DNA of 64,000 nt from Squalus acanthias (taxonomy: Eukaryota). The DNA is taken from NCBI GenBank assembly GCA_030390025.1, contig JASTWF010001532.1:1-64000 (forward strand). The letters are read 5' to 3'. Both the position numbers and the translations under genes were made by a program. Positions 1 to 57,949 of this stretch are shown piece by piece; the stretch's first letter is position 1, and each line of letters begins with the position of its first letter. The notes beneath the pieces were generated by a model, which had not been told where the DNA came from, ran no database searches, and worked only from the letters and a program-made list of their open reading frames with translations.

Positions 1-1020
1 GCTGTCGCTGCCGGAAGGCCGCACTGACGCTCCTGAGGGGGGGGGGACAACATGGCGTGCTACGTCACCGCGCTGACGGACGTCACGTTCCTCCGCCCAA
101 TCCTGGGTTGACGTCACGACGTTAACGGTTCTTCGACCACCCAATCCTGGCCATGACGTCATCACGTCGTCCGCCGTTCGCCCGCCCAATCCTGGCCGTG
201 ACGTCAACACGTTGCCCGCCGTTCGCCGGCCCCATCCTGGCCTTGACGTCACCACGTTGACCGCCGTTCGCCGGCCCAATCCTGGCCGTGACGTCACCAC
301 GTTGCCCGCCGTTCGCCGGTCCAATGCTGGCCGTGACGTCACCACGTTGCCCGCCGTTGGCCGGCGCAATCCTGGCCTTGACGTCACCACGTTGCCCGCC
401 GTTCGCCGGCCCAATCCTGGCCTTGACGTCAGCACGTTGCCCGTCGTTGGCCGGCCCAATCCTGGCCTTGACGTCAGCACGTTGCCCTCCGTTCGCCGGC
501 CCAATCCTGGCCTTGACGTCAGCACGTTGCCCGTCGTTGCTCCAACCAAATTGAAACCAGACGTCAGCACGTTGCCAAACGTCAACCGTCGACCGCTCAC
601 TCCGCCCTCGGCCTGTGACGTCGTTTCCCCGGGCCTCCACCGTTGCAGAATAATTTTCGCCTCCGGGGCTGGTGGTCGAGTGAATGTAATTTCTTCGCCT
701 TGAGGAAAGGAGAGAAACGCCGAGGCAGAAATTCAAGTTAAAGTTGGCGGTTTGATGACGTTCTCGCTGTAGCCACGCCCACCTCCCCGCCCTGCGTCTG
801 ACGTCAACACGTCCCCAATCCCGGCCCCGCCCCCTGACATCAGTTTATTTTTATTTTCTTTCGCGCAGCCACGGGGAAAAAAAAATTATCCTCACCGAAA
901 AAAAAATTGCCCACTTTTTTTGGACGGTTGGCGCTTCGATCTTCCCTGACGTCATCACGTCGCGCACCTCCGTGGGGGAGGCGTTGCGTCTTGACGTCAT
1001 GGCGTCCCCATACGTTCCTG
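1..1020. promoter_or_regulatory. CpG-island-like promoter region of an unidentified neighbouring gene
   Basis: Very CpG-dense; 13 TGACGTCA sites; CCAAT boxes; GC boxes (ccccgccc); ETS-like CCGGAAG at 11-17; YY1-like AACATGGCG at 49-57. Confidence 0.7.
97..580. repeat. 45-bp tandem repeat (~10 copies) carrying CCAAT, CRE and GTTGCC
   Basis: TGACGTCA starts at 109, 154, 199, 244, 289, 334, 379, 424, 469 and 514. Confidence 0.95.
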
Positions 1021-1032
1021 CCTCCACCTTTT

Positions 1033-1322
1033 CAGCAGAGCTCCCCTGCTGGAGGAAGGGGGAATATCACCTCTTCCTCCCCAAACCCCACCCCCACAGC
1101 AGCGCCCCCTGCTGGAGAGGGGGGGAATATCACCTCTTCCCCCCCCAACCCCACCCCCACAGCAGAGCCCCCTGCTGGAGAGGGGGGGAATATCACCTCT
1201 TCCCCCCCCAAACCCCACCCCCACAGCAGCGCCCCCTGCTGGAGGAAGGGGGAATATCACCTCTTCCCCCCCAAACCCCACCCCCACAGCAGCGCCCCCT
1301 GCTGGAGGAGGGGGGAATATCT
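1033..1322. repeat. ~63-bp tandem repeat (~4.5 copies) with CTCF-like motifs
   Basis: GCGCCCCCTGCTGG at 1102, 1229 and 1292; variants at 1039 and 1165. Confidence 0.85.
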
Positions 1323-11458: not shown

Positions 11459-11464
11459 TTTATT
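11459..11464 (-). terminator. Putative poly(A) signal of TAPBPR
   Basis: First AATAAA I could find on the minus strand after the stop codon, followed by a GU-rich downstream element (gtgttctgtgtc). Confidence 0.65.
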
Positions 11465-11543
11465 AACTCCAATATTGCACACAGCACATTCACATTTCGT
11501 ATGAGCATCTCCTTAATTTGAAACCGATCTCAGACGAGATGCT

Positions 11544-13035
11544 GAGGGTTAGTGGACTAGAGGGATGGGCTTCGATGGGAGAGTTAGGGGACTAGAGGGA
11601 TGGGCTTTGATGGGAGAGTTAGGGGACTAGAGGGATGGGCTTCGATGGGAGAGTTAGGGGACTAGAGGATGGGCTTCGATGGGAGTGTTAGGGGACTAGA
11701 GGGATGGGCTTCGATGGGAGGGTTAGGGGACAAGAGGGATGGGCTTCGATGGGAGAGTTAGGGGACTAGAGGGATGGGCTTCGATGGGAGAGTTAGGGGA
11801 CTAGAGGGATGGGCTTTGATGGGAGAGTTAGGGGACTAGAGGGATGGGCTTTGATGGGAGAGTTAGGGGACTAGAGGGATGGGCTTCGATGGGAGAGTTA
11901 GGGGACTAGAGGGATGGGCTTTGATGGGAGAGTTAGGGGACTAGAGGGATGGGCTTCGATGGGAGAGTTAGGGGACTAGAGGGATGGGCTTCGATGGGAG
12001 AGTTAGGGGACTAGAGGGATGGGCTTTCATGGGAGAGTTAGGGGACTAGAGGGATGGGCTTCGATGGGAGGGTTAGTGGACTAGAGGGATGGGCTTTCAT
12101 GGGAGAGTTAGGGGACTAGAGGGATGGGCTTCGATGGGAGGGTTAGTGGACCAGAGGGATGGGCTTCGATGGGAGAGTTAGGGGACTAGAGGGATGGGCT
12201 TTCATGGGAGAGTTAGGGGACTAGAGGGATGGGCTTCGATGGGAGGGTTAGTGGACTAGAGGGATGGGCTTTCATGGGAGAGTTAGGGGACTAGAGGGAT
12301 GGGCTTCGATGGGAGGGTTAGTGGACCAGAGGGATGGGCTTCGATGGGAGAGTTAGGGGACTGGAGGGATGGGCTTCGATGGGAGAGTTAGGGGACTAGA
12401 GGGATGGGCTTCGATGGGAGTGTTAGGGGACTAGAGGGATGGGCTTCGATGGGAATGTTAGGGGACTAGAGGGATGGGCTTCGATGGGAATGTTAGGGGA
12501 CTAGAGGGATGGGCTTCGATGGGAGGGTTAGTGGACCAGAGGGATGGGCTTCGATGGGAGGGTTAGGGGACTAGAGGGATGGGCTTCGATGGGAGAGTTA
12601 GGGGACTAGAGGAATGGGCTTCGATGGGAGTGTTAGGGGACTAGAGGGATGGGCTTCGATGGGAGAGTTAGTGGACTAGAGGGATGGGCTTCGATGGGAG
12701 AGTTAGGGGACTAGAGGGATGGGCTTCGATGGGAGAGTTAGGGGACTAGAGGGATGGGCTTCAATGGGAGTGTTAGTGGACTAGAGGGATGGGCTTCGAT
12801 GGGAGTGTTAGGGGACTAGAGAGATGGGCTTCGATGGGAAGGTTAGGGGACTAGAGGGATGGGCTTCGATGGGAGTGTTAGGGGACTAGAGAGATGGGCT
12901 TCGATGGGAAGGTTGGAGGACTAGAGGGATGGGCTTCGATGGGAGAGTTAGGGGACCAGAGGGATGGGCTTCGATGGGAGAGTTGGCGGTTAAGAGGGAT
13001 GGGCTTCGATGGGAGTGCTGGAGGTCTAGAGGGAG
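11544..13035. repeat. 35-bp minisatellite (~42 copies) in the putative TAPBPR 3' UTR
   Basis: Unit gggatgggcttcgatgggagagttaggggactaga. Confidence 0.95.
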
Positions 13036-13213
13036 AGGATTCTCTGGGAGAGTTAAGGAACCTGCTGACCACACTGGGCGAGGTCAGGCTAACTCGGCAC
13101 AGGCCGGTGATGGAGCCTGGGCCTTTCCTGTTCTCTCCACGACTCCTCTTCTCCACGGACGGGCTACCTGGCACAGGACCCCCCTGTCGGACCCGCCGGG
13201 AATGTCGATGATC

Positions 13214-13228
13214 TCAGTTCGCCGTCGC
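13214..13228 (-). CDS. TAPBPL: TAPBPR terminal coding exon (ATAN-stop with exon 7; GDGELRSSTFPAGPTGGSCAR-stop ending at 13164 if exon 7 is skipped)
   Basis: Acceptor ttctttcccctttcag| at 13229-13230. Confidence 0.65.
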   Translation of the reverse strand, partial: ATAN

Positions 13229-16200
13229 CTGAAAGGGGAAAGAATTAAATCCACGTGAGTCAGCCCGGGGGAAACCCGGGGCAGAATTAACTCGAGGGGC
13301 AGGCTCTGGGCCTACTCGCAGGCCTCACCGGGCGCTGGCCTGTGATTGGTGGTCGGGAGGGGTCAAGTGGCGGGGGTCGCGACCTTTCACCTTGCACCTC
13401 CTCCCCAAGGCGGCCATTTTGTATCTTTTACGCCAAGATTGGAAAGGGGTCAGGAGGGATGGGGATTGGGGGAGGGGGGGGGGGGCGAGGGTGAACGAAG
13501 GGGAAAATAACCCACCGTCTCCTGTCCTGCTCCGTTCGGAGGTCCTGTTGGAAGAAAGAGAGGGGAAATGGGTTACTTTAGGCGTCCTACAAAACCAGAA
13601 TTAGCCCCCCCCTTCCCCTCCCCCTCCCCGTCTCTCGCCACCCCTCCCCCGATGCGGTTGACACACAGCCTGCTTCCTGGTACCTCACCCAAGGGGTCCG
13701 CTCGGTGGGAGCAGGATATTGCACTGTGGAGGGCATCACAGCCAGGCCCCGATCCTGTCTTCACTCGACCCCGGCCCACCAAACCCACCCACATCGAACC
13801 ACCCCCCCATTCAGTGGTTGTCAAGAGCAGGAACCCCTGGTCGATTGACCCCTCACCCCTCCCTAAGCGGGCGGTACTGAGGCTAACTGTAGCTCTCTAC
13901 ACACCCCGACACCCAGCTCTACTGGGACTGTCGAACTCAGAACAGGCCAGGGACAAAGCTGGGGCCTTTCCCGCTCTGTGTCTCCTGATGGGGAGAGACT
14001 CCCTCTTTAAAAGGGGTCCCTGATGGAGAGACTCCCCCTTTAAACGGGTTCACTGATGGAGAGACTCCCTCTTTAAAAGGGGTCTCTGATGGAGAGACTC
14101 CCTCTTTAAAAGGGGTCCCTGATGGAGAGAGACTCCCTCTTTAAAAGGGGTCCCTGATGGAGAGACTCCCTCTTTAAAAGGGGTCCCTGATGGAGAGAGA
14201 CTCCCTCTTTAAAAGGGGTCCCTGATGGAGAGACTCCCTCTTTAAAAGGGGTCCCTGATGGGGAGAGACTCCCTCTTTAAAAGGGGTCCCTGATGGAGAG
14301 ACTCCCCCTTTAAACGGGTTCACTGATGGAGAGACTCCCTCTTTAAAAGGGGTCTCTGATGGAGAGACTCCCTCTTTAAAAGGGTTCACTGATGGAGAGA
14401 CTCCCTCTTTAAAAGGGGTCTCTGATGGAGAGACTCCCTCTTTAAAAGGGGTCCCTGATGAAGAGAGACTCCCTCTTTAAAAGGGGTCCCTGATGGAGAG
14501 ACTCCCTCTTTAAAAGGGGTCCCTGATGGAGAGAGACTCCCTCTTTAAAAGGGGTCTCTGATGGGGAGAGAGACTCCCTCTTTAAAAGGGGTCCCTGATG
14601 GAGAGAGACTCCCTCTTGAGAAGGTGTCCCTGATGGAGAGACTCCCTCTTTAAAAGGGGTCCCTGATGGAGAGACTCCCTCTTTAAAAGGGGTCTCTGAT
14701 GGAGAGAGATTCCCTCTTTAAAAGGGGTCCTTGATGGAGAGACTCCCTCTTTAAAATGGGTCCCTGATGGAGAGAGACTCCCTCTTTAAAAGGGGTCACT
14801 GATGGAGAGAGACTCCCTCTTTAAAAGGGGTCCTTGATGGAGAGAGACTCCCTCTTTAAAAGGGGTCACTGATGGAGAGACTCCCTCTTTAAAAGGGTCT
14901 CTGATGGAGAGAGACTCCCTCTTTAAAAGGGGTCCCTGATGGAGAGACTCCCTCTTTAAAAGGGGTCCTTGATGGAGAGAGACTCCCTCTTTAAAAGGGG
15001 TCACTGATGGAGAGACTCCCTCTTTAAAAGGGGTCACTGATGGCGAGACTCCCTCTTTAAAAGGGGTCACTGATGGGGAGAGACTCCCTCTTTAAAAGTG
15101 GTCTCTGATGGAGAGACTCCCTCTTTAAAAGGGGTCCCTGATGGGGAGAGACTCCCTCTTTAAAAGGGGTCCCTGATGGAGAGACTCCCTCTTTAAAAGG
15201 GGTCCCTGATGGAGAGACTCCCTCTTTAAAAGGGGTCCCTGATGGAGAGAGACTCCCTCTTTAAAAGAGGTCCCTGATGGGGAGAGACTCCCTCTTTAAA
15301 AGGGGTCCCTGATGGAGAGAGACTCCCTCTTTAAAAGGGGTCCCTGATGGGGAGAGACTCCCTCTTTAAAAGGGGTCCTTGATGGAGAGACTCCCTCTTT
15401 AAAAGGGTCTCTGATGCGGAGAGACTCCCTCTTTAAAAGGGGTCCCTGATGGAGAGACTCCCTCTTTAAAAGGGGTCACTGATGGGGAGAGACTCCCTCT
15501 TTAAAAGTGGTCTCTGATGGAGAGACTCCCTCTTTAAAAGGGGTCCCTGATGGGGAGAGACTCCCTCTTTAAAAGGGGTCCCTGATGGAGAGACTCCCTC
15601 TTTAAAAGGGGTCCCTGATGGGGAGAGACTCCCTCTTTAAAAGGGGTCACTGATGGAGAGACTCCCTCTTTAAAAGGGGTCACTGATGGGGAGAGACTCC
15701 CTCTTTAAAAGTGGTCTCTGATGGAGAGACTCCCTCTTTAAAAGGGGTCCCTGATGGGGAGAGACTCCCTCTTTAAAAGGGGTCCCTGATGGGGAGAGAC
15801 TCCCTCTTTAAAAGGATTCCCCGATGGGGAGAGAGACTCCCTCTTCAAAAGGAGTTACTGATGGAGAGAGACTCCCTCTTTAAAAGGGGTCCCTGATGGA
15901 GAGAGACTCCCTCTTTAAAAGGGGTCACTGATGGAGAGAGACTCCCTCTTTAAAAGGGGTCTCTGATGGGGAGAGAGACTCTCTCTTTAAAAGGGGTCCC
16001 TGATGGAGAGAGACTCCCTCTTTAGAAGGGGTCCCTGATGGAGAGACTCCCTCTTTAAAAGGGGTCCCTGATGGAGAGACTCCCTCTTTAAAAGGGTCTC
16101 TGATGCGGAGAGACTCCCTCTTTAAAAGGGGTCTCTGATGGAGAGAGACTCCCTCTTTAAAAGGGGTCCCTGATGGGGAGACTCCCTCTTTAAAAGGGGT

Positions 16201-19200
16201 CCCTGATGGAGAGAGACTCCCTCTTTAAAAGGGGTCCTTGATGGAGAGACTCCCTCTTTAAAAGGGTCTCTGATGCGGAGAGACTCCCTCTTTAAAAGGG
16301 GTCCCTGATGGAGAGACTCCCTCTTTAAAAGGGTCTCTGATGCGGATACCCTAGTAGCTGCGGTCCTTACCTGCTTGTTTTGGAGTTTCTCGACAGAAGT
16401 GCATAATGGCGAGGAGGAAGAGGACTGAGGCGATGAGACTACCGTACAGAGCTGACTGACTGCCCTCCTTGGACCCTGCAAGGGGGATGAGAAGGGAGCA
16501 GATTGATAACCAACATGAGGGACAGTCGGACCACTAAATTACTGTCCAATCTGTGAACTCGCTCCCCTGCCCCTTCCCCATTCAACCCTCCCGAGGGAAC
16601 GAGATTCACCCTCTGCTACCTAATCCCAATCGGCGGGGATGAACCCTCTCACCCACCTACTCCCAGTTACAGACACCGGGCAGCCTATTCCCTATCGGAG
16701 GGGATTAACCCTCTCACCCACCTCCTCCCAGTTACAGACACTGGGCAGCCTGTTCCCTATCGGAGGGGATTAACCCACTCACCCACCTCCTCCCAGTTAC
16801 AGACACCGGGCAGCCTGTTCCCCTATCGGAGGGGATTAACCCTCTCACCCACCTCCTCCCAGTTACAGACACCGGGCAGCCTGTTCCCCTATCGGAGGGG
16901 ATTAACCGTCTCACCCACCTCCTCCCAGTTACAGACACCGGGCAGCCTGTTTCCGATCAGAGGGGATTAACCCTCTCACCCACCTCCTCCCAGTTACAGA
17001 CACCGTGCAGCCTGTTCCCTATCGGAGGGGATTAACCCTCTCACCCACCTCCTCCCAGTTACAGAGACCGGGCAGCCTGTTCCCTATCGGAGCGGATTAA
17101 CCCTCTCACCCACCTCCTCCCAGTTACAGACACCGGGCAGCCTGTTCCCTATCAGAGAGGATTAACCCTCTCACCCACCTCCTCCCAGTTACAGACACCG
17201 GGCAGCCTGTTCCCTATCGGAGGGGATTAACCCTCTCACCCACCTTCTCCCAGTTACAGACACTGGGCAGCCTGTTCTCTATCGGAGGGGGATTAACCCT
17301 CTCACCCACCTCCTCCCAGTTACAGACACCGGGCAGCCTGTTCCCTATCGGAGTGGATTAACCCTCTCACCCACCTCCTCCCAGTTACAGACACCGGGCA
17401 GCCTGTTCCCTATCGGAGGAGATTAACCCTCTCACCCACCTCCTCCCAGTTACAGAAACCGGGAGGCCTGTTCCCTATCGGAGGGGGATTAACTCTCTCA
17501 CCCACCTCCTCCCAGTTACAGACACCAGGCAGCCTGTTCCCCTATCGGAGGGGATTAACCCTCTCAACCCCTCACCTCCCAGTTACAGACACCAGGCAGC
17601 CTGTTCCCTGTCGGAGGGGATTAACCCTCTCAACCCCTCACCTCCCAGTTACAGACACCGGGCAGCCTGTTCCCTATCGGAGGGGATTAACCCTCTCACC
17701 CACCTCCTCCCAGTTACAGACACCGGGCAGCCTGTTCCCTATCAGAGGGGATTAACCCTCTCACCCACCTACTGCCAGTTACAGACACTGGGCAGCCTGT
17801 TCCCCTATCAGAGGGGGATTATCCCTCTCACCCACCTCCTCCCAATTACAGACACCGGGCAGCCTGTTCCCTATCGGAAGGGATTAACCCTCTCACCCAC
17901 CTCCTCCCAGTTACAGACACCGGGCAGCCTGTTCCCTATCGGAGGGGGATTAACCCTCTCACCCACCTCCTCCCAGTTACAGACACTGGGCAGCCCATTC
18001 CCCTAGCGGAGGGGATGAACCCTCTCACCCACCTCCTCCCAGTTACAGACATCAGGCAGCCTGTTCCCTATCGGAGGGGGATTAACCCTCTCACCCACCT
18101 CCTCCCAGTTATTTGACACCGGGCAGCCTGTTCCCTATCGGAGTGGGATTAACCCTCTCACCCACCTCCTCCCAGTTACAGACACCAAACCTGTTTCCCT
18201 ATCGGAGTGGATTAACCCTCTCACCCACCTCCTCCCAGTTATAGACACTGGGCAGCCCGTTCCCTATCAGAGGGGATTAACCCTCTCACCCACCTCCTCC
18301 CAGTTACAGATACCGGGCAGCCTGTTCCCTATCGGAGGGGATTAACCCTCTCACCCACCTCCTCCCAGTTACAGACACCTGGCAGCCTGTTCCCTATCGG
18401 AGGGGATTAACCCTCTCACTCACCTCCTCCCAGTTACAGACACCGGACAGCCTGTTCCCCATCAGAGGGGGATTTATCCTCTCACCCACCTCCTCCCAGT
18501 TACAGACACCGGGCAGGCTGTTCCCCTCTCGGAGGGGATTAACCCTCTCACCCACCTCCTCCCAGTTACAGACACTGGGCAGCCTGTTCCCTATCGGAGG
18601 GGATTAACCCTCTCACCCACCTCCTCCCAGTTACAGACAACGGGCAGCCTGTTCCCTATTGGACGGGGATTAACCCTCTCACCCACCTCCTCCCAGTTAC
18701 AGACACCGGGCAGCCCATTCCCTAATCGGAGGGGGATTAACCCTCTCACCCACCTCCTCCCAGTTACAGACACTGGGCAGCCTGTTCCCTATCGGAGGGG
18801 GATTAACCCTCTCACCCACCTCCTCCCAGTTACAGACACTGGGCAGCCTGTTCCCTATCGGAGGGGATTAACCCTCTCACCCACCTCCTCCCAGTTACAG
18901 ACACCGGGCAGCCTGTTCCCCATCAGAGGGGATTAACCCTCTCACCCTCCACCTCCCAGTTACAGACACCAGGCAGTCTGTTCCCTATCGGAGGGGATTA
19001 ACCCTCTCACCCACCTCCTCCCAGTTACAGACACTGGGCAGCCTGTTCCCCTATCAGAGGGGATTAACCCTCTCACCCACCTCCTCCCAGTTACAGACAC
19101 TGGGCAGCCTGTTCCCCTATCGGAGGGGATTAACCCTCTCACCCACCTCCTCCCAGTTACAGACACCGGGCAGCCTGTTCCCTATCGGAGGGGGATTAAC

Positions 19201-22200
19201 CCTCTCACCCACCTCCTCCCAATTACAGACACTGGGCAGCCTGTTCCCCTATCGGAGGGGGATTAACCCTCTCACCCACCTCCTCCCAGTTACAGACACC
19301 GGGCAGGCTGTTCCCCTATCGGAGGGGATTAACCCTCTCACCCACCTCCTCCCAGTTACAGACACTGGGCAGCCTGTTCCCTATCGGACGGGGATTAACC
19401 CTCTCACCCACCTCCTCCCAGTTACAGACACCGGGCAGCCCGTTCCCTAATCGGAGGGGGATTAACCCTCTCACCCACCTCCTCCCAGTTACAGACACCG
19501 GGCAGCCTGTTCCCCTATCGGAGGGGGATTAACCCTCACACCCACCTCCTCCCAGTTACAGACACCGGGCAGCCTGTTCCCCTGTCTGAGGGGATTATCC
19601 CTCTCACCAACCTCCTCCCAGTTACAGACACTGGGCAGCCTGTTCCCTATCGGAGGGGGATTAACCCTCTCACCCACCTCCTCCCAGTTACAGACACTGG
19701 GCAGCCTGTTCCCTATCGGAGGGGATTAACCCTCTCACCCACCTCCTCCCAGTTACAGACACCGGGCAGCCTGTTCCCCTATCGGAGGGGGATTAACCCT
19801 CTCACCCACCTCCTCCCAATTACAGACACCGGGCAGCCTGTTCCCCTATCGGAGGGGATTAACCCTTTCCTTACCGGTCCAATTTTCCAGGCGGAGCGTT
19901 TTGACGAGGGGTGTCTCCAGGGAGATGTGCGACACCTCGCAGGTGTAGACAACCCCGGCCTCCCCCGGGCTGGGCGCCACCTCGACCGCGGCCGAGAGGT
20001 TGAAGGTCCCGTCCTTGTTGCGACGGTGGCTGGAGAAGGAGACGCCGGAGAGGGCGCGGGGTCCGAAGTCGTCCCCTGGGTACTCCACGGTCCACTTCAC
20101 GCTAGCCTCCAGAGGGTAGTAGCGACTGACCTCGCAAGCGAGCCTCTCCCGCATCCCCTCCCTGAAATACATGGTATCCGGGTTCAACCGTACCTGCGGG
20201 GACTCTGAAAGAAAAATCCAGACATCGGGTGAGAAATCTGCCGAGGCTCCCTCTCTCTCAGGGAGATATCTGTACACTGACTGGTGTCTCTCAGTCCCTC
20301 TCTCTCAGGGAGATATCTGTACACTGACTGGTGTCTCTCAGTCCCTCTCCCTCAAGGAGATATCTGTACACTGACTGGTGTCTCTCCGTCCCCTCTCTCT
20401 CAGGGAGATATCTGTACACTGACTGGTGTCTCTCAGTCCCTCTCTCTCAGCGAGATATCTGTACACTGACTGGTGTCTCTCAGACCCTCTCTCTCTCAGG
20501 GAGATATCTGTACACTGACTGGTGTCTCTCAGTCGCTCTCCAACATGGAGATATCTGTACACTGACTGGTGTCTCTCAGTCCCTCTCTCTCAGGGAGATA
20601 TCTGTACACTGACTGGTGTCTCTCAGTCCCTCCCTCTCAGGGAGATATCTGTACACTGACTGGTGTCTCTCAGTCCCCTCTCCCTCAGGGAGATATCTGT
20701 ACACTGACTGGTGTCTCTCAGTCCCCTCTCCCTCAGGGAGATATCTGTACACTGACTGGTGTCTCTCAGTCCCCTCTCCCTCATGGAAATATCTGTACAC
20801 TGACTGGTGTCTCTCAGTCCCTCTCTCTCAGGGAGATATCTGTACACTGACTGGTGTCTCTCAGTCCCCTCTCCCTCAGGGAGATATCTGTACACTGACT
20901 GGTGTCTCTCAGTCCCCTCTCTCTCATGGAGATATCTGTACAGTGACTGGTGTCCCTCAGTCCCTCTCCCTCAGGGAGATATCTGTACAGTAACTGGTGT
21001 CTCTCAGTCCCTCTCTCTCAGGGAGATATCTGTACACTGACTGGTGTCTCTCAGTCCCTCACTCTCAGGGAGATATCTGTACACTGACAGGTGTCTCAGT
21101 CCCTCACTCAGAGAGATATCTGTACACTGACTGGTGTCTCTCAGTCCCCTCTCCCTCAGGGAGATATCTGTACAATGACTGGTGTCTCTCAGTCCCTCTC
21201 CCTCAGGGTGATATCTGTACACTGACTGGTGTCTCTCAGTCCCTCTTTCTTGGGGAGATATCTGTACACTGACTGGTGTCTCTCAGCCCCTCTCTCTCAG
21301 GGAGATATCTGTACACTGACTGGTGTCACTCAGCCCCTCTCTCTCAGGGAGATATCTGTACACTGACTGGTGTCTCTCAGTCCCTCTTTCTTGGGGAGAT
21401 ATCTATACACTGACTGGTGTCTCTCAGTCCCTCTCCCTCAGGGAGATATCTGTACACTGACTGGTGTCTCTCAGTCCCTCTCTCTCGGAGATATCTGTAC
21501 ACTGACTGGTGTCTCAGTCCCTCTCTCTCAGGATGATATCTGTACACTGACTGGTGTCTCTCAGTCCCTCTCCCTCAGGGAGATATCTGTACACTGACTG
21601 GTGTCTCTCAGTTCCTCTCTCTCTCAGGGAGATATCTGTACACTGACTGGTGTCTCTCAGTCCCCTCTCCCTCAGGGTGATATCTGTACATTCACTGGTG
21701 TCTCTCAGTCCCTCTCTCTCAGGGAGATATCTGTACACTGACTGGTGTCTCTCAGTCCCTCTTTCTTGGGGAGATATCTGTACACTGACTGGTGTCTCAG
21801 TCCCCTCTCTCAGGGAGATATCTTTACACTGACTGGTGTCTCTCAGGCCCTCTCCCTCAGGGAGATATCTGTACACTGACTGGTGTCTCTCAGTCCCTCT
21901 CTCTCAGGGAGATATCTGTGCACTGACTGGTGTCTCTCAGTCCTTCTCCCTCAAGGAGATATCTGTACACTGACTGGTGTCTCTCCGTCCCCTCTCTCTC
22001 AGGGAGATATCTGTACACTGACTGGTGTCTCTCAGACACTCTCTCTCTCAGGGAGATATCTGTACACTGGCTGGTGTCTCTCAGTCCCTCTCCAACATGG
22101 AGATATCTGTACAGTGACTGGTGTCTCTCAGTCTCTCTCTCTCAGGGAGATATCTGTACACTGACTGGTATCTCTCAGTTCCTCTCTCTCAGGGAGATAT

Positions 22201-25200
22201 CTGTACACTGACTGGTGTCCCTCAGTCCCTCTCCCTCAGGGAGATATCTGTACACTGACTGGTGTCTCTCAGTCCCCTCTCCCTCAGGGAGATATCAGTA
22301 CACTGATTGGTGTCTCTCAGTCACTCTCCCTCAGGGAGATATCTTTACACTGACTGGTGTCTCTCAGTCCCTCTCTCAGGGAGATATCTGTACACTGACT
22401 GGTGTCTCTCAGTTCCTCTCTCTCTCAGGGAGATATCTGTACACTGACTGGTGTCTCTCAGTCCCCTCTCTCTCAGGGAGATATCTGTACACTGACTGGT
22501 GTCTCTCAGTCCCTCTTTCTTGGGGAGATATCTGTACACAGACTGGTGTCTCAGTCCCCTCTCTCAGGGAGATATCTTTACACTGACTGGTGTCTCTCAG
22601 GCCCTCTCCCTCAGGGAGATATCTGTACACTGACTGGCGTCTCTCAGTCCCTCTCTCTCAGGGAGATATCTGTACACTGACTGGTGTCTCTCAGTCCCTC
22701 TCCCTCAAGGAGATATCTGTACACTGACTGNNNNNNNNNNNNNNNNNNNNNNNNNNNNNNNNNNNNNNNNNNNNNNNNNNNNNNNNNNNNNNNNNNNNNN
22801 NNNNNNNNNNNNNNNNNNNNNNNNNNNNNNNNNNNNNNNNNNNNNNNNNNNNNNNNNNNNNNNNNNNNNNNNNNNNNNNNNNNNNNNNNNNNNNNNNNNN
22901 NNNNNNNNNNNNNNNNNNNNNNNNNNNNNNGATATCTGTACACTGACTGGTGTCTCTCAGTCCCTCTCTCTCAGGGAGATATCTGTACACTGACTGGTGT
23001 CTCTCAGTCCCTCTCTCTCAGGGAGATATCTGTACACTGACTGGTGTCTCTCAGCCCCTCTCTCTCAGGGAGATATCTGTACACTGACTGGTGTCTCTCA
23101 GTCCCTCTCTCTTGGGGAGATATCTGTACACTGACTGGTGTCTCTCAGTCCCTCTCCCTCAGGGAGATATCTGTACACTGACTGGTGTCTCTCAGTCCCT
23201 CTCTCTCGGAGATATCTGTACACTGACTGGTGTCTCAGTCCCTCTCTCTCAGGATGATATCTGTACACTGACTGGTGTCTCTCAGTCCCTCTCCCTCAGG
23301 GAGATATCTGTACACTGACTGGTGTCTCTCAGTCCTCCTCTCTCTCTCAGGGAGATATCTGTACACTGACTGGTGTCTCTCAGTCCCCTCTCCCTCAGGT
23401 GATATCTGTACACTGACTGGTGTCTCTCAGTCCCTCTCTCTCAGGAGATATCTGTACACTGACTGGTGTCTCTCAGTCCCTCTTTCTTGGGAGATATCTG
23501 TACACTGACTGGTGTCTCTCAGTCCCCTCTCTCAGGGAGATATCTGTACACTGACTGGTGTCTCTCAGTCCCCCTCTCCCTCAGGGAGATATCTGTACAC
23601 TGACTGGTGTCTCTCAGTCCCTCTCTCTCAGAGAGATATATGTACACTGACTGGTGTCTCTCAGTCCCTCTCCCTCAAGGAGATATCTGTACACTGACTG
23701 TGTCTCTCTCAGTCCCTCTCTCTCAGGGAGATATCTGTACACTGACTGGTGTCTCTCAGACCTCTCTCTCAGGGAGATATCTGTACACTGACTGGTGTCT
23801 CTCTCAGTCCCTTCCACTGAGATATCTGTACACTGACTGGTGTCTCTCAGTCCCTCTCTCTCAGGGAGATATCTGTACACTGACTGGTGTCTCTCAGTTC
23901 CTCTCTCTCAGGGAGATATCTGTACACTGACTGGTGTCCCTCAGTCCCTCTCCCTCAGGGAGATATCTGTACACTGACTGGTGTCTCTCAGTCCCCTCTC
24001 CCTCAGGGAGATATCTGTACACTGACTGGTGTCTCTCAGTCCCTCTCCCTCAGGGAGATATCTGTACACTGACTGGTGTCTCTCAGTCCCTCTCTCAGGG
24101 AGATATCTGTACACTGACTGGTGTCTCTCAGTCCCTCTCTCTCTCAGGGAGATATCTGTACACTGACTGGTGTCTCTCAGTCCCCTCTCTCTCAGGGAGA
24201 TATCTGTACACTGACTGGTGTCTCTCAGTCCCTCTCTCTTTGGAGATATCTGTACACTGACTGGTGTCCTCAGTCCCCTCTCTCAGGGAGATATCTTACA
24301 CTGACTGGTGTCTCTCAGTCCCTCTCCCTCAGGGAGATATCTGTACACTGACTGGTGTCTCTCAGTCCCTCTCTCTCAGGGAGATATCTGTACACTGACT
24401 GGTGTCTCTCAGTCCCCTCTCCTCAGGGAGATATCTGTACACTGACTGGTGTCTCTCTGTCCCCTCTCTCTCAGGGAGATATCTGTACACTGACTGGTGT
24501 CTCTCAGTCCCTCTTTCTTGGGGTGATATCTGTACACTGACTGGTGTATCTCAGTCCCTCTCTCGCAGGGAGATATCTGTACACTGACTGGTGTCTCTCA
24601 GTCCCCCTCCCTCAAGGAGATATCTGTACACTGACTGGTGTCTCTCCGTCCCCTCTCTCTCAGGGAGATATCTGTACACTGACTGGTGTCTCTCAGTCCC
24701 TCTCTCTCAGGGAGATATCTGTACACTGACTGGTGTCTCTCAGACCCTCTCTCTCTCAGGGAGATATCTGTACACTGACTGGTGTCTCTCAGTCCCTCTC
24801 CAACATGGAGATATCTGTACACTGACTGGTGTCTCTCAGTCCCCTCTCCCTCAGGGAGATATCTGTACACTGACTGGTGTCTCTCAGTCCCCTCTCCCTC
24901 GGGAGATATCTGTACACTGACTGGTGTCTCTCAGTCCCCTCTCCCTCAGGGAGATATCTGTACACTGACTGGTGTCTCTCAGTCCCCTCTCTCTCAGGGA
25001 GATATCTGTACACTGACTGGTGTCTCTCAGTCCCCTCTCCCTCAGGGAGATATCTGTACACTGACTGGTGTCTCTCAGTCCCTCTCCCTCAGGGAGATAT
25101 CTGTACACTGACTGGTGTCTCAGGCCCCTCTCCCTCAGGGAGATATCTATACACTGACTGGTGTCTCTCAGTCCCTCTTTCTTGGGGAGATATCTGTACA

Positions 25201-28200
25201 CTGACTGGTGTCTCAGTCCCCTCTCTCAGGGAGATATCTTTACACTGACTGGTGTCGCTGAGGCCCTCTCCCTCAGGGAGATATCTGTACACTGACTGGT
25301 GTCTCTCAGTCCCTCTCTCTCAGGGAGATATCTGTACACTGACTGGTGTCTCTCAGTCCCTCTCCCTCAAGGAGATATCTGTACACTGACTGGTGTCTCT
25401 CCGTCCCCTCTCTCTCAGGGAGATATCTGTACACTGACTGGTGTCTCTCAGTCCCTCTCTCTCAGCGAGATATCTGTACACTGACTGGTGTCTCTCAGAC
25501 CCTCTCTCTCTCAGGGAGATATCTGTACACTGACTGGTGTCTCTCAGTCGCTCTCCAACATGGAGATATCTGTACACTGACTGGTGTCTCTCAGTCCCTC
25601 TCTCTCAGGGAGATATCTGTACAGTGACTGGTGTCTCTCAGTCCCTCTCTCTCAGGGAGATATCTGTACACTGACTGGTGTCTCTCAGTCCCTCTACTCA
25701 GGGAGATATCTGTACACTGACTGGTGTCTCTCAGTCCCCTCTCCCTCAGGGAGATATCTGTACACTGACTGGTGTCTCTCAGTCCCCTCTCCCTCAGCGA
25801 GATATCTGTACACTGACTGGTGTCTCTCAGTCCCCTCTCCCTCATGGAAATATCTGTACACTGACTGGTGTCTCTCAGTCCCTCTCTCTCAGGGAGATAT
25901 CTGTACACTGACTGGTGTCTCTCAGTCCCCTCTCCCTCAGGGAGATATCTGTACACTGACTGGTGTCTCTCAGTCCCCTCTCTCTCATGGAGATAATCTG
26001 TACAGTGACTGGTGTCCCTCAGTCCCTCTCCCTCATGGAGATATCTGTACAGTAACTGGTGTCTCTCAGTCCCTCTCTCTCAGGAGATATCTGTACCACT
26101 GACTGGTGTCTCTCAGTCCCTCACTCTCAGGGAGATATCTGTACACTGACAGGTGTCTCAGTCCCTCACTCAGAGAGATATCTGTACACTGACTGGTGTC
26201 TCTCAGTCCCCTCTCCCTCAGGGAGATATCTGTACAATGACTGGTGTCTCTCAGTCCCTCTCCCTCAGGGTGATATCTGTACACTGACTGGTGTCACTCA
26301 GTCCCTCTCTCTCAGGGAGATATCTGTACACTGACTGGTGTCTCTCAGTCCCTCTTTCTTGGGGAGATATCTGTACACTGACTGGTGTCTCTCAGTCCCT
26401 CTCCCTCAGGGAGATAATCTGTACACTGACTGGTGTCTCTCAGTCCCTCTCTCTCGGAGATATCTGTACACTGACTGGTGTCTCAGTCCCTCTCTCTCAG
26501 GATGATATCTGTACACTGACTGGTGTCTCTCAGTCCCTCTCCTCAGGGAGATATCTGTACACTGACTGGTGTCCCTCAGTCCCTCTCCCTCAGGGAGATA
26601 TCTGTACACTGACTGGTGTCTCTCAGTCCGCTCTCCCTCAGGGAGATATCAGTACACTGATTGGTGTCTCTCAGTCACTCTCCCTCAGGGAGATATCTGT
26701 ACACTGACTGGTGTCTCTCAGTCCCTCTCTCAGGGAGATATCTGTACACTGACTGGTGTCTCTCAGTTCCTCTCTCTCTCAGGGAGATATCTGTACACTG
26801 ACTGGTGTCTCTCAGTCCCCTCTCTCTCAGGGAGATATCTGTACACTGACTGGTGTCTATCAGTCCCTCTTTCTTGGGGAGATTCTGTACACAGACTGGT
26901 GTCTCAGTCCCCTCTCTCAGGGAGATATCTTTACACTGACTGGTGTCTCTCAGGCCCCCTCTCCTCAGGGAGATATCTGTACACTGACTGGTGTCTCTCA
27001 GTCCCTCTCTCTCAGGGAGATATCTGTACACTGACTGTGTCTCTCAGTCCCCCTCCCTCAAGGAGATATCTGTACACTGACTGGTGTCTCTCCGTCCCCT
27101 CTCTCTCAGGGAGATATCTGTACACTGACTGGTGTCTCTCAGTCCCTCTCTCTCAGGGAGATATCTGTACACTGAATGGTGTCTCTCAGACCCTCTCTCT
27201 CTCAGGGAGATATCTGTACACTGACTGGTGTCTCTCAGTCCCTCTCCAACATGGAGATATCTGTACACTGACTGGTGTCTCTCAGTCCCTCTCTCTCAGG
27301 GAGATATCTGTACACTGACTGGTGTCTCTCAGTCCCTCTCCCTCAGGGAGATATCTGTACACTGACTGGTGTCTCTCAGTCCCCTCTCCCTCAGGGAGAT
27401 ATCTGTACACTGACTGGTGTCTCTCAGTCCCCTCTCTCTCATGGAAATATCTCTACACTGACTGGTGTCTCTCAGTCCCTCTCTCTCAGGGAGATATCTG
27501 TACACTGACTGGTGTCTCTCAGTCCCCTCTCCCTCAGGGAGATATTTGTACACTGACTGGTGTCTCTCAGTCCCCTCTCTCTCATGGAGATATCTGTACA
27601 GAGACTGGTGCCCCTCAGTCCCTCTCCCTCAGGGAGATATCTGTACACTGACTGGTGTCTCTCAGTCCCTCTCTCTCAGGGAGATACCTGTACACTGACT
27701 GGTGTCTCTCAGTCCCCTCTCCCTCAGGGAGATATCTGTACACTGACTGGTGTCTCTCAGTCCCCTCTCTCTCATGGAGATATCTGTACAGTGACTGGTG
27801 TCCCTCAGTCCCTCTCTCTCAGGGAGATATCTGTACACTGACTGGTGTCCCTCAGTCCCTCTCCCTCAGGGAGATATCTGTACACTGACTGGTGTCTCTC
27901 AGTCCCTCTCTCTCAGGGAGATATCTGTACACTGACTGGTGTCTCTCAGTCCCCTCTCTCTCAGGGAGATATCTGTACACTGACTGGTGTCTCTCAGTCC
28001 CTCTCCCTCAGGGAGATATCTGTACACTGACTGGTGTCTCTCAGTCCCTCTCCCTCAGGGAGATATCTGTACACTGACTGGTGTCTCATTCCCTCTCTCT
28101 CAGGGAGATATCTGTACACTGACTGGTGTCTCTCAGTCCCCTCTCCCTCAGGGAGATATCAGTACACTGACTGGTGTCTCTCAGTCACTCTCCCTCAGGG

Positions 28201-31200
28201 AGATATCTGTACACTGACTGGTGTCTCTCAGTCCCCTCTCTCTCAGGATGATATCTGTACACTGACTGGTGTCTCTCAGTCCCTCTCCCTCAGGGAGATA
28301 GCTGTGCACTGACTGGTGTCTCTCAGTCCCCTCTACCTCAGGGAGATATCTGTACACTGACTGGTGTCTCTCAGTCCCTCTCAGGGAGATATCTGTACAC
28401 TGACTGGTGTCTCTCAGTTCCTCTCTCTCTCAGGGAGATATCTGTACACTGACTGGTGACGCTCAGTCCCCTCTCCCTCAGGGTGATATCTGTACACTGA
28501 CTGGTGTCTCTCAGTCCCCCTCTCAGGGAGATATCAGTACACTGATTGGTGTCTCTCAGTCACTCTCCCTCAGGGAGATATCTGACAATGACTGGTGTCT
28601 CTCAGTCCCTCTCTCTCGGAGATATCTGTACACTGACTGGTGTCTCTCAGTCCCTCTCCCTCAGGATGATATCTGTACACTGACTGGTGTCTCTCAGTCC
28701 CTCTCCCTCAGGGAGATATCTGTACACTGACTGGTGTCTCATTCCCTCTCTCTCAGGGAGATATCTGTACACTGACTGGTGTCTCTCAGTCCCCTCTCCC
28801 TCAGGGAGATATCAGTATACTGACTGGTGTCTCTCAGTCACTCTCCCTCAGGGAGATATCTGTACACTGACTGGTGTCGCTCAGTCCCCTCTCCCTCAGG
28901 GTGATATCTGTACACTGACTGGTGTCTCTCAGTCCCTCTCTCTCAGGGAGATATCTGTACACTGACTGGTGTCTCTCAGTCCCCTCTCCCTCAGGGAGAT
29001 ATCTGTACACTGACTGGTGTCTCTCAGTCCCCTCTCCCTCAGGGAGATATCTGTACACTGACTGGTGTCTCTCAGTCCCCTCTCTCTCATGGAAATATCT
29101 GTACACTGACTGGTGTCTCTCAGTCCCTCTCCCTCAGGGAGATATCTGTACACTGACTGGTGTCTCTCAGTCCCCTCTCCCTCAGGGAGATATCTGTACA
29201 CTGACTGGTGTCTCTCACACCCCTCTCTCTCAGGGAGATATCTTTACACTGACTGGTGTCTCTCAGGCCCTCTCCCTCAGGGAGATATCTGTACACTGAC
29301 TGGCGTCTCTCAGTCCCTCTCTCTCAGGGAGATATCTGTACACTGACTGGTGTCTCTCAGTCCCTCTCCCTCAAGGAGATATCTGTACACTGACTGGTGT
29401 CTCTCTGTCCCCTCTCTCTCAGGGAGATATCTGTACACTGACTGGTGTCTCTCAGTCCCTCTTTCTTGGGGTGATATCTGTACACTGACTGGTGTATCTC
29501 AGTCCCTCTCTCGCAGGGAGATATCTGTACACTGACTGGTGTCTCTCAGTCCCCCTCCCTCAAGGAGATATCTGTACACTGACTGGTGTCTCTCCGTCCC
29601 CTCTCTCTCAGGGAGATATCTGTACACTGACTGGTGTCTCTCAGTCCCTCTCTCTCAGGGAGATATCTGTACACTGACTGGTGTCTCTCAGACCCTCTCT
29701 CTCTCAGGGAGATATCTGTACACTGACTGGTGTCTCTCAGTCCCTCTCCAACATGGAGATATCTGTACACTGACTGGTGTCTCTCAGTCCCCTCTCCCTC
29801 AGGGAGATATCTGTACACTGACTGGTGTCTCTCAGTCCCCTCTCCCTCAGGGAGATATCTGTACACTGACTGGTGTCTCTCAGTCCCCTCTCCCTCAGGG
29901 AGATATCTGTACACTGACTGGTGTCTCTCAGTCCCCTCTCTCTCAGGGAGATATCTGTACACTGACTGGTGTCTCTCAGTCCCTCTTTCTTGGGGAGATA
30001 TCTGTACACTGACTGGTGTCTCAGTCCCCTCTCTCAGGGAGATATCTTTACACTGACTGGTGTCGCTGAGGCCCTCTCCCTCAGGGAGATATCTGTACAC
30101 TGACTGGTGTCTCTCAGTCCCTCTCTCTCAGGGAGATATCTGTACACTGACTGGTGTCTCTCAGTCCCTCTCCCTCAAGGAGATATCTGTACACTGACTG
30201 GTGTCTCTCCGTCCCCTCTCTCTCAGGGAGATATCTGTACACTGACTGGTGTCTCTCAGTCCCTCTCTCTCAGCGAGATATCTGTACACTGACTGGTGTC
30301 TCTCAGACCCTCTCTCTCTCAGGGAGATATCTGTACACTGACTGGTGTCTCTCAGTCGCTCTCCAACATGGAGATATCTGTACACTGACTGGTGTCTCTC
30401 AGTCCCTCTCTCTCAGGGAGATATCTGTACAGTGACTGGTGTCTCTCAGTCCCTCTCTCTCAGGGAGATATCTGTACACTGACTGGTGTCTCTCAGTCCC
30501 TCTACCTCAGGGAGATATCTGTACACTGACTGGTGTCTCTCAGTCCCCTCTCCCTCAGGGAGATATCTGTACACTGACTGGTGTCTCTCAGTCCCCTCTC
30601 CCTCAGGGAGATATCTGTACACTGACTGGTGTCTCTCAGTCCCCTCTCCCTCATGGAAATATCTGTACACTGACTGGTGTCTCTCAGTCCCTCTCTCTCA
30701 GGGAGATATCTGTACACTGACTGGTGTCTCTCAGTCCCCTCTCCCTCAGGGAGATATCTGTACACTGACTGGTGTCTCTCAGTCCCCTCTCTCTCATGGA
30801 GATATCTGTACAGTGACTGGTGTCCCTCAGTCCCTCTCCCTCATGGAGATATCTGTACAGTAACTGGTGTCTCTCAGTCCCTCTCTCTCAGGGAGATATC
30901 TGTACACTGACTGGTGTCTCTCAGTCCCTCACTCTCAGGGAGATATCTGTACACTGACCGGTGTCTCAGTCCCCTCACTCAGAGAGATATCTGTACACTG
31001 ACTGGTGTCTCTCAGTCCCTCTCCCTCAGGGAGATATCTGTACAATGACTGGTGTCTCTCAGTCCCTCTCCCTCAGGGTGATATCTGTACACTGACTGGT
31101 GTCACTCAGTCCCTCTCTCTCAGGGAGATATCTGTACACTGACTGGTGTCTCTCAGTCCCTCTTTCTTGGGGAGATATCTGTACACTGACTGGTGTCTCT

Positions 31201-34200
31201 CAGTCCCTCTCCCTCAGGGAGATATCTGTACACTGACTGGTGTCTCTCAGTCCCTCTCTCTCGGAGATATCTGTACACTGACTGGTGTCTCAGTCCCTCT
31301 CTCTCAGGATGATATCTGTACACTGACTGGTGTCTCTCAGTCCCTCTCCCTCAGGGAGATATCTGTACACTGACTGGTGTCCCTCAGTCCCTCTCCCTCA
31401 GGGAGATATCTGTACACTGACTGGTGTCTCTCAGTCCGCTCTCCCTCAGGGAGATATCAGTACACTGATTGGTGTCTCTCAGTCACTCTCCCTCAGGGAG
31501 ATATCTGTACACTGACTGGTGTCTCTCAGTCCCTCTCTCAGGGAGATATCTGTACACTGACTGGTGTCTCTCAGTTCCTCTCTCTCTCAGGGAGATATCT
31601 GTACACTGACTGGTGTCTCTCAGTCCCCTCTCTCTCAGGGAGATATCTGTACACTGACTGGTGTCTCTCAGTCCCTCTTTCTTGGGGAGATATCTGTACA
31701 CAGACTGGTGTCTCAGTCCCCTCTCTCAGGGAGATATCTTTACACTGACTGGTGTCTCTCAGGCCCTCTCCCTCAGGGAGATATCTGTACACTGACTGGT
31801 GTCTCTCAGTCCCTCTCTCTCAGGGAGATATCTGTACACTGACTGGTGTCTCTCAGTCCCCCTCCCTCAAGGAGATATCTGTACACTGACTGGTGTCTCT
31901 CCGTCCCCTCTCTCTCAGGGAGATATCTGTACACTGACTGGTGTCTCTCAGTCCCTCTCTCTCAGGGAGATATCTGTACACTGACTGGTGTCTCTCAGAC
32001 CCTCTCTCTCTCAGGGAGATATCTGTACACTGACTGGTGTCTCTCAGTCCCTCTCCAACATGGAGATATCTGTACACTGACTGGTGTCTCTCAGTCCCTC
32101 TCTCTCAGGGAGATATCTGTACAGTGACTGGTGTCTCTCAGTCCCTCTCTCTCAGGGAGATATCTGTACACTGACTGGTGTCTCTCAGTCCCTCTCCCTC
32201 AGGGAGATATCTGTACACTGACTGGTGTCTCTCAGTCCCCTCTCCCTCAGGGAGATATCTGTACACTGACTGGTGTCTCTCAGTCCCTCTCCCTCAGGGA
32301 GATATCTGTACACTGACTGGTGTCTCTCAGTCCCTCTCTCTCAGGGAGATATCTGTACACTGACTGGTGTCTCTCAGTCCCTCTCTCTCATGGAAATATC
32401 TCTACACTGACTGGTGTCTCTCAGTCCCTCTCTCTCAGGGAGATATCTGTACACTGACTGGTGTCTCTCAGTCCCCTCTCCCTCAGGGAGATATTTGTAC
32501 ACTGACTGGTGTCTCTCAGTCCCCTCTCTCTCATGGAGATATCTGTACAGAGACTGGTGTCCCTCAGTCCCTCTCCCTCAGGGAGATATCTGTACACTGA
32601 CTGGTGTCTCTCAGTCCCTCTCTCTCAGGGAGATACCTGTACACTGACTGGTGTCTCTCAGTCCCCTCTCCCTCAGGGAGATATCTGTACACTGACTGGT
32701 GTCTCTCAGTCCCCTCTCTCTCATGGAGATATCTGTACAGTGACTGGTGTCCCTCAGTCCCTCTCTCTCAGGGAGATATCTGTACACTGACTGGTGTCCC
32801 TCAGTCCCTCTCCCTCAGGGAGATATCTGTACACTGACTGGTGTCTCTCAGTCCCTCTCTCTCAGGGAGATATCTGTACACTGACTGGTGTCTCTCAGTC
32901 CCTCTCTCTCAGGGAGATATCTGTACACTGACTGGTGTCTCTCAGTCCCTCTCCCTCAGGGAGATATCTGTACACTGACTGGTGTCTCTCAGTCCCTCTC
33001 CCTCAGGGAGATATCTGTACACTGACTGGTGTCTCATTCCCTCTCTCTCAGGGAGATATCTGTACACTGACTGGTGTCTCTCAGTCCCCTCTCCCTCAGG
33101 GAGATATCAGTACACTGACTGGTGTCTCTCAGTCACTCTCCCTCAGGGAGATATCTGTACACTGACTGGTGTCTCTCAGTCCCTCTCTCTCAGGATGATA
33201 TCTGTACACTGACTGGTGTCTCTCAGTCCCTCTCCCTCAGGAGATAGCTGTGCACTGACTGGTGTCTCTCAGTCCCCTCTACCTCAGGGAGATATCTGTA
33301 CACTGACTGGTGTCTCTCAGTCCCTCTCAGGGAGATATCTGTACACTGACTGGTGTCTCTCAGTTCCTCTCTCTCTCAGGGAGATATCTGTACACTGACT
33401 GGTGACGCTCAGTCCCCTCTCCCTCAGGGTGATATCTGTACACTGACTGGTGTCTCTCAGTCCCCCTCTCAGGGAGATATCAGTACACTGATTGGTGTCT
33501 CTCAGTCACTCTCCCTCAGGGAGATATCTGACAATGACTGGTGTCTCTCAGTCCCTCTCTCTCGGAGATATCTGTACACTGACTGGTGTCTCTCAGTCCC
33601 TCTCCCTCAGGATGATATCTGTACACTGACTGGTGTCTCTCAGTCCCTCTCCCTCAGGGAGATATCTGTACACTGACTGGTGTCTCATTCCCTCTCTCTC
33701 AGGGAGATATCTGTACACTGACTGGTGTCTCTCAGTCCCCTCTCCCTCAGGGAGATATCAGTATACTGACTGGTGTCTCTCAGTCACTCTCCCTCAGGGA
33801 GATATCTGTACACTGACTGGTGTCGCTCAGTCCCCTCTCCCTCAGGGTGATATCTGTACACTGACTGGTGTCTCTCAGTCCCTCTCTCTCAGGGAGATAT
33901 CTGTACACTGACTGGTGTCTCTCAGTCCCCTCTCCCTCAGGGAGATATCTGTACACTGACTGGTGTCTCTCAGTCCCCTCTCCCTCAGGGAGATATCTGT
34001 ACACTGACTGGTGTCTCTCAGTCCCCTCTCTCTCATGGAAATATCTGTACACTGACTGGTGTCTCTCAGTCCCTCTCCCTCAGGGAGATATCTGTACACT
34101 GACTGGTGTCTCTCAGTCCCCTCTCCCTCAGGGAGATATCTGTACACTGACTGGTGTCTCTCACACCCCTCTCTCTCATGGAGATATCTGTACAGTGACT

Positions 34201-55896: not shown

Positions 55897-55908
55897 GCTT
55901 TCGCTTTG
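55897..55908 (-). promoter_or_regulatory. IRF-E/ISRE-like element upstream of the TAPBPR start codon
   Basis: CAAAGCGAAAGC fits AAASYGAAASY about 90 nt upstream of the ATG; a second similar site AAAACGGAAAGC at 56095-56106. Confidence 0.55.
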
Positions 55909-57882: not shown

Positions 57883-57949
57883 GTTGCCATGGTAACCCCG
57901 AGTAGACCGAAGCCTTCACCACTAAAGGTCGGCAGGTTGCCATGGTAAC
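57883..57949. promoter_or_regulatory. Two RFX X-box-like near-palindromes in a short direct duplication
   Basis: GTTGCCATGGTAAC at 57883-57896 and 57936-57949. Confidence 0.5.

Follow-up and report, generated by a model that had tools for sequence, protein, structure and literature searches.

What function, if any, could a strictly regular array of ten full CREs have at the very beginning of a Squalus acanthias contig? The window analysed here consists of the first 64,000 bases of this contig (C617:1-64000), whose whole length is 75,042 bases. A preliminary description of the same DNA had read the array as an MHC-type module of X, X2 and Y boxes linked to an antigen-presentation gene. The arrangement of the motifs proved to be real, whereas neither the MHC reading nor the link to such a gene held; the array is best read as a candidate promoter minisatellite.

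Structure of the 45-bp array

The array has a regular part and a degenerate end:

93..542, no strand assigned: 45-bp minisatellite of 10 units; a palindromic CRE is present in all of them, CCAAT in 8, GTTGCC in 7 and CACGT in 9
543..587, no strand assigned: degenerate 11th unit, without CCAAT and with the CRE minus its first base

The ten perfect palindromes at 45-bp spacing noted earlier are confirmed by a motif count, which places TGACGTCA at 109, 154 and further exact 45-bp steps up to 514, and by TRF, which reports a repeat at 95-538 with period 45, 9.9 copies and 89% matches. CCAAT lies 5' of the CRE at a distance of 8 nt in seven units and 7 nt in one (8/10 units), and GTTGCC lies 3' of it after a 4-nt gap in 7/10 units, both as previously described; CRE, CCAAT and GTTGCC are all intact in six of the ten units. 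Copies of the CRE-CACGT core with diverged flanks occur at 79, 560, 799 and 947, those at 79, 799 and 947 being partial.

Further full CREs at 799, 947 and 992 bring the number of TGACGTCA sites to 13 per 64,000-base window, compared to 0.57 expected, and none of 100 shuffles of the window reached this count. Since the ten array CREs are copies of one unit, their count and phasing represent a single event. Phasing at 45 bp is what any tandem duplication yields, and the window itself is about 60% tandem repeat, its 15 main arrays covering 38,487 of the 64,000 bases. A high content of tandem repeats and GC is described for short shark chromosomes in excerpts of a published study (PMC10620051). 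At the level of the single unit, shuffling of its composition produced a CRE in 64 of 200,000 cases and a CRE together with CCAAT in two of 200,000, for motifs that were picked post hoc.

The array begins 92 bases from the contig end, and one contig of DNA run X1 reaches 59 bases left of base 1. The small contig C1261 of genome G000 opens (L076:1-65) inside a cluster of CRE, CCAAT, GC-box and ETS motifs, with a likely signal-peptide exon downstream of it at about 570-650; it may be common for contigs to end in promoters.

Neighbouring genes

The genes seen in the window are on the minus strand, to the right of the array:

11459..55810, minus strand: TAPBPR-like gene (start codon at 55810, splice 13227/13515 for the last intron, putative poly(A) hexamer at 11459-11464)
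55899..55907, minus strand: IRF-type motif, some 90 bp ahead of the TAPBPR start codon
62191..62598, minus strand: last exon of an ENaC/ASIC-family gene (Pfam ASC, E 1.3e-5)

The minus-strand exons of the TAPBPR-like gene encode V-set and C1-set domains (Pfam), and for two of them the best solved-structure match is TAPBPR, with E 2e-18 and 1e-4. This test is also compatible with a third paralogue, and the gene may represent the latter instead. The site with the IRF-type motif is likely the gene's own promoter. The gene occupies about 44 kb; most of its introns contain a minisatellite, one holding 19 kb of 47-bp units, and a 1.5-kb array of 35-bp units is located inside its predicted 3' UTR. 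The ENaC/ASIC-family gene is presumably SCNN1A, given the human SCNN1A-TAPBPR neighbourhood, outside the MHC. As for the third paralogue, it has been lost in placental mammals according to excerpts of PMC5824609.

The array lies about 11 kb beyond the 3' end of the TAPBPR-like gene and 55 kb from its start. Thus the proposed link to an antigen-presentation gene fails: it is the 3' end that faces the array, the start is 55 kb off, and an array of CTCF motifs lies between. No MHC gene was seen within the window, and the array is not upstream of the start of any MHC-pathway gene seen there.

Between the 3' end of the ENaC-family gene and the TAPBPR start there are two full RFX-type palindromes (57883-57896 and 57936-57949), at a distance of 53 bp and within a short local duplication. 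As X-box matches they are better than every site of the array.

When the assembly was searched for a gene to the left of the array, no second contig overlapping 1-100 was found. MRPL51 and the N-terminus of NCAPD2 gave no match in family searches, but the controls were equally empty and these searches are uninformative. Synaptobrevin was considered as the left-hand gene and rejected: all nine matches are on other contigs, and the small-contig match, 812 kb into the AT-richer C757, shows no link.

The CpG island

The array is embedded in a CpG island with promoter-type motifs (ETS, YY1, GC-box, CCAAT, CRE) on both sides of the repeat:

1..1030, no strand assigned: CpG island opening the contig and continuing left beyond the assembly (GC 0.61, CpG o/e 1.23)
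11..56, plus strand: ETS-type (11) and YY1-type (49) motifs, from motif patterns
756..999, no strand assigned: non-tandem cluster of a CRE half-site (756), GC boxes (787 and 827), CREs (799, 947 and 992) and CCAAT (815)
844..855, minus strand: two AATAAA hexamers

Past position 1030 the CpG o/e drops to 0.11-0.31. ETS-type and YY1-type motifs such as those at 11..56 are usual close to the starts of CpG islands. The ERSE, ERSE-II, UPRE, ISRE, NF-kB, TATA and canonical donor patterns have no matches within 1-1100.

The preliminary description had suggested that the retained CpGs reflect a germ line in which the island is unmethylated. CpG density alone is weak evidence of this, since copies of a dispersed CpG-rich repeat have a mean CpG o/e of 1.06 although decay at their CpGs is five times as fast as at other C/G positions (327/1,812 versus 91/2,512). 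The mutation pattern is more informative and agrees with the suggestion. Between array units, CpG transitions are seen in 1/108 cells, compared to 6/171 at other C/G, while the neighbouring arrays have 92/670 versus 102/5,899, in a tally that leaves out the 47-bp array, whose reference fell on N letters. Counted by columns, the array has CpG transitions in 1/12 versus 16/30 (p=0.013). Between samples, one of the 40 differences listed for 1-700 is a CpG transition, versus nine of 26 in the control region 13056-13984 at the 3' end of TAPBPR (p=0.0006); this tally covers listed differences only, and some of those within the array may be differences between units. The simplest reading of this pattern is an island that is unmethylated in the germ line, although strong selection on CpG-containing motifs would look alike.

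Transcription of the island

Parts of 1-1030 are contained in four sequencing runs, one of DNA (X1) and three of RNA (X2-X4), the latter covering:

247..737, no strand assigned: RNA-covered stretch (X2 247-695, X3 495-700, X4 593-737; depth 4-7, no joint)

The three runs represent spliced RNA, as each joins TAPBPR exons and leaves unique intron parts bare, and these parts are covered by the DNA run X1. In line with the promoter view of the preliminary description, the region is transcribed at a low level; the depth over TAPBPR in the same runs is 24-69. The RNA evidence consists of contigs from three runs of one study. RNA cover is absent at 1-246 and 738-1030, but this is uninformative, as DNA run X1 equally has a hole at 565-1034. 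The depth of X1 over 424-517 is about 130 versus 17, which fits collapsed copies and is no measure of copy number. Taken with its motifs, the array region looks like a promoter island.

Conservation of motifs and variation between samples

In this assembly, none of the eight CRE columns of the unit is variable, compared to 15/37 elsewhere (p=0.027); unit 1, which has a one-base register shift, is excluded from the column test. However, an invariant run of eight columns appears in 46% of permutations. With CACGT added to the CRE, the numbers are 0/13 versus 15/32 (p=0.0016), for a grouping chosen post hoc. CCAAT (2/5 columns variable) and GTTGCC (2/6) vary like the remainder of the unit.

Changes at 250, 293, 340 and 473 in X1 and X2 amount to four broken CREs. 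They account for 2/15 (X1) and 2/26 (X2) of the differences within the array, approximately the motif's share of the unit. Since CCAAT and GTTGCC vary and CREs are broken in X1 and X2, the three-part module is not kept together, and the CRE itself is unprotected in some units. Other samples hold different unit variants, and no contig crosses the whole array; variation in copy number is plausible.

A CTCF-motif minisatellite at the island edge

A second minisatellite is located precisely at the end of the island, between it and TAPBPR:

1033..1321, minus strand: 63-bp minisatellite of 4.6 units; its CTCF-consensus sites are exact at 1102, 1229 and 1292 and have one mismatch at 1165

The CTCF consensus pattern has three exact matches compared to 0.06 expected, and these three and the one near match are the only ones in the window. 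A match occurred in 23/200,000 shuffles of the 63-bp unit and twice in 340 kb of other fetched DNA. The array is single-locus. Its candidate sites thus form a tandemly repeated consensus in a single orientation at what would be a domain edge. By the orientation rule for CTCF, minus-strand sites at this place would anchor loops leftward. Directly after the last CTCF-bearing unit, at 1327-1334, there is a motif that is presumably of the octamer type.

Tandem repeats bearing CTCF sites are described as boundaries at DXZ4/FIRRE/ICCE and at the 1q23 tRNA VNTR, according to excerpts of PMC6985041 and PMC4041453. The 63-bp array resembles these repeats, as there described, in having the CTCF consensus in tandem and in one orientation. 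However, they have kilobase units and demonstrated binding, whereas here 63-bp units are repeated 4.6 times and the likeness is one of motif.

A candidate promoter minisatellite

We estimate at roughly 55% the probability that the island serves as promoter region to a gene lying past the end of the contig, with a CRE and CCAAT module that has been multiplied, is bound and acts additively, and with the CTCF array shielding TAPBPR. Under this model, an ordinary promoter module of CRE and CCAAT would owe its multiplication to the tandem-repeat turnover that has filled the whole region, and the array would make up the upstream portion of a promoter whose gene lies to the left of the contig end. 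By analogy with the TRIB3 VNTR, CREB/ATF dimers and NF-Y would occupy the units and hold the island open, and the output would add up approximately with the number of intact units. The RNA over 247-737 would represent promoter transcription, either divergent or unspliced, and the CTCF-motif array would separate the island from TAPBPR to the right.

The closest known system is the 33-bp VNTR in the human TRIB3 promoter, where, according to excerpts of PMC7425993, one to five copies of a bZIP site raise reporter output approximately 5-fold. Both represent a promoter or promoter-like segment with a bZIP site that has undergone tandem multiplication at a single locus, and the array has the two corresponding properties: an intact site per tandem unit (full CRE in 10/10 units) and a single locus in an island that would be unmethylated by its mutation pattern. 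As described in these excerpts, however, the TRIB3 repeat contains a C/EBP-ATF site, its gene is known and its effect has been measured, whereas the array has ten full CREs with CCAAT boxes and is known from sequence. A promoter minisatellite of the TRIB3-VNTR kind is the best reading of the array, and the feature is real and probably regulatory. In a literature search, no paper was found on a tandem TGACGTCA and CCAAT minisatellite or on this locus.

Promoter composites of NF-Y with bZIP or bHLH factors (excerpts of PMC7793273 and PMC4889920) resemble the array in that CCAAT stands by CRE- or E-box-like motifs and GC boxes. However, in the excerpts on ENCODE data the bZIP and bHLH sites are placed 10-12 bp 5' of CCAAT (PMC7793273), the usual partner position, whereas the array CRE is 8 bp 3' of CCAAT or, counted to the next unit, 24 bp 5' of it. 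This uncommon geometry stands against the promoter reading, and CCAAT-N8-CRE is not enriched genome-wide: there are 40 matches, seven of them here, and 228 for the reversed control, which has no CpG. Eight of the 30 fetched matches belong to one other dispersed family (L048, L049, L050, L052, L058, L060, L065 and L069) with a spacer unrelated to the array unit.

Other points also argue against a promoter. No target gene or start site is visible, the contig stopping 92 bases left of the array; one section of the flank is similar to a dispersed repeat; the RNA consists of contigs of one study; and there are the permutation result for the invariant CRE run and the four CREs broken in X1 and X2.

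A possible orphan minisatellite of repeat origin

It is possible, though not probable, that the array is an orphan: an unmethylated minisatellite that arose from a piece of a CpG-rich dispersed repeat and controls no gene, with the RNA being noise or read-through from TAPBPR. All six pattern matches are at this locus, and 95-580, 560-1035 and 1-100 match no other place in the DNA, in first-look genome searches that may miss diverged copies. The unit as a whole is thus not a common dispersed transposon fragment, an outcome that the preliminary description had named as fatal to its view; unit and flanks are single-locus.

A 16-base core pattern was found at seven other genomic places, versus 14 for the control. 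A single dispersed family, for which a first-look search lists 3,319 candidates, accounts for four of these seven. The family core, from 30 of 40 scored copies, agrees with the unit core at 17/19 bases, and TGACGTCA is intact in 17/30 fetched copies. The remaining 26 bases of the unit have no match to this family, and its copies decay at CpG while the array does not, which argues against an orphan. The flank contains a further candidate trace:

730..817, plus strand: borderline likeness to a CpG-rich dispersed repeat family with a CRE core (profile match)

The score of the whole arm was equalled by 2/1,000 shuffles in the profile search and by 229/1,000 in local alignment. For the part independent of the core, 32/1,000 shuffles reached the score in local alignment (p about 0.03) and there was no profile match, so this part of the evidence is weak. 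That the decaying family copies keep a CpG o/e as high as they do fits the orphan reading, as does the lack of demonstrated motif selection; the two minus-strand AATAAA hexamers, situated between TAPBPR and the RNA-covered part, speak against read-through. Minisatellites derived from repeats are reported to be common in excerpts of PMC3389668, which also favours a seed of this kind, and on sequence likeness a repeat-derived seed for the array is possible.

In the copies L077-L106 of this abundant CpG-rich dispersed family, the core, near 1500-1750 of each, contains a CRE beside a YY1-like motif. In the LINE-type leader at L010:2318, a full CRE is followed 18 bp on by a reverse CCAAT, a gap that exceeds that of the array by one helical turn.

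Enhancer, MHC-type module and other readings

An action of the island as a 3' enhancer of the TAPBPR-like gene, through CREB/ATF and NF-Y, is unlikely. Of the genes seen it is the closest, and its expression is evident in runs X2-X4; enhancers produce low-level RNA, and the cover of the island would be of the expected kind. However, the array is 55 kb from a gene start that has its own IRF-type motif, and between them there is the CTCF-motif array, in the orientation that, by the CTCF rule, would anchor loops leftward. A CpG island with ETS, YY1 and GC-box motifs is more in keeping with a promoter.

The MHC-type module of RFX, CREB and NF-Y, as originally proposed, is highly improbable. The minus-strand order holds: an RFX half-site, a CRE and a reverse CCAAT follow each other as X1, X2 and Y in 6/10 units, and published descriptions of the S-X-Y or W-X1-X2-Y modules of MHC genes give the same order of RFX-like, CREB and NF-Y sites on one strand. 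The spacing and the full X1 do not. Compared to those descriptions, the array is about one helical turn too short, has X1 as a half-site only, and is repeated tenfold; the full RFX X1 pattern has no matches in 1-1100. According to excerpts of PMC4381081, functional MHC-II X-Y modules span 47-49 bp and the spacing decides function, so the module cannot fit into a 45-bp unit; with an 8-bp gap from CRE to CCAAT, the array does not keep the fixed X-Y spacing of MHC genes. It also differs from the NLRC5 targets, where excerpts of PMC4374748 place Y 20-22 bp from X and describe the S box as required. In the S-X-Y module the S box stands about 16 bp 5' of X. In favour of the module, the excerpts of PMC4381081 include CIITA recruitment at sites with very variable spacing. 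However, GTTGCC and CCAAT are not conserved between units, and no MHC gene is among those recognised in the window. Since the LINE-type leader also pairs a CRE with a reverse CCAAT, this pairing is not peculiar to MHC genes.

The ATF6 element ERSE resembles the array in having CCAAT followed 3' by a bZIP site that contains ACG. However, the spacing in the array is one base short, and ERSE, ERSE-II and UPRE patterns are absent from 1-1100.

An array of LINE or LTR promoter monomers, or a repeat coding for 15 residues, is as remote a prospect as the MHC module: LINEs of this genome do carry leaders with CRE and CCAAT (L010:2318), and 45 bp equal 15 codons with open frames running across the array, but the unit and both flanks are single-locus with no matches in viral contigs, and the coding repeat is rejected by synonymous counts of 4, 2, 5 and 3 of 19 in the four open frames versus 26-32% expected. 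Pfam gave no match above the cut-off for the array open frames; Rfam gave six matches, all far under the gathering score and none within 1-1030.

Implications

For the question of how MHC gene control arose, the array is not informative. Testing the mutation pattern, as was done here, is a way to find islands that are unmethylated in the germ line in genomes with CpG-rich repeats.

The promoter reading can be extended to a rather doubtful but specific model, in which the CRE and CCAAT units, possibly seeded by a repeat fragment, would serve as a natural copy-number dial for cAMP/ATF signals and the adjacent CTCF minisatellite as a boundary. If this is true, minisatellite turnover on the repeat-rich chromosomes of sharks tunes both promoter strength and insulation. 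If functional, the locus would be a natural tenfold CRE reporter with its own insulator, and would offer a simple, testable case of minisatellite tuning of gene output in cartilaginous fish, where repeats fill gene-rich regions.
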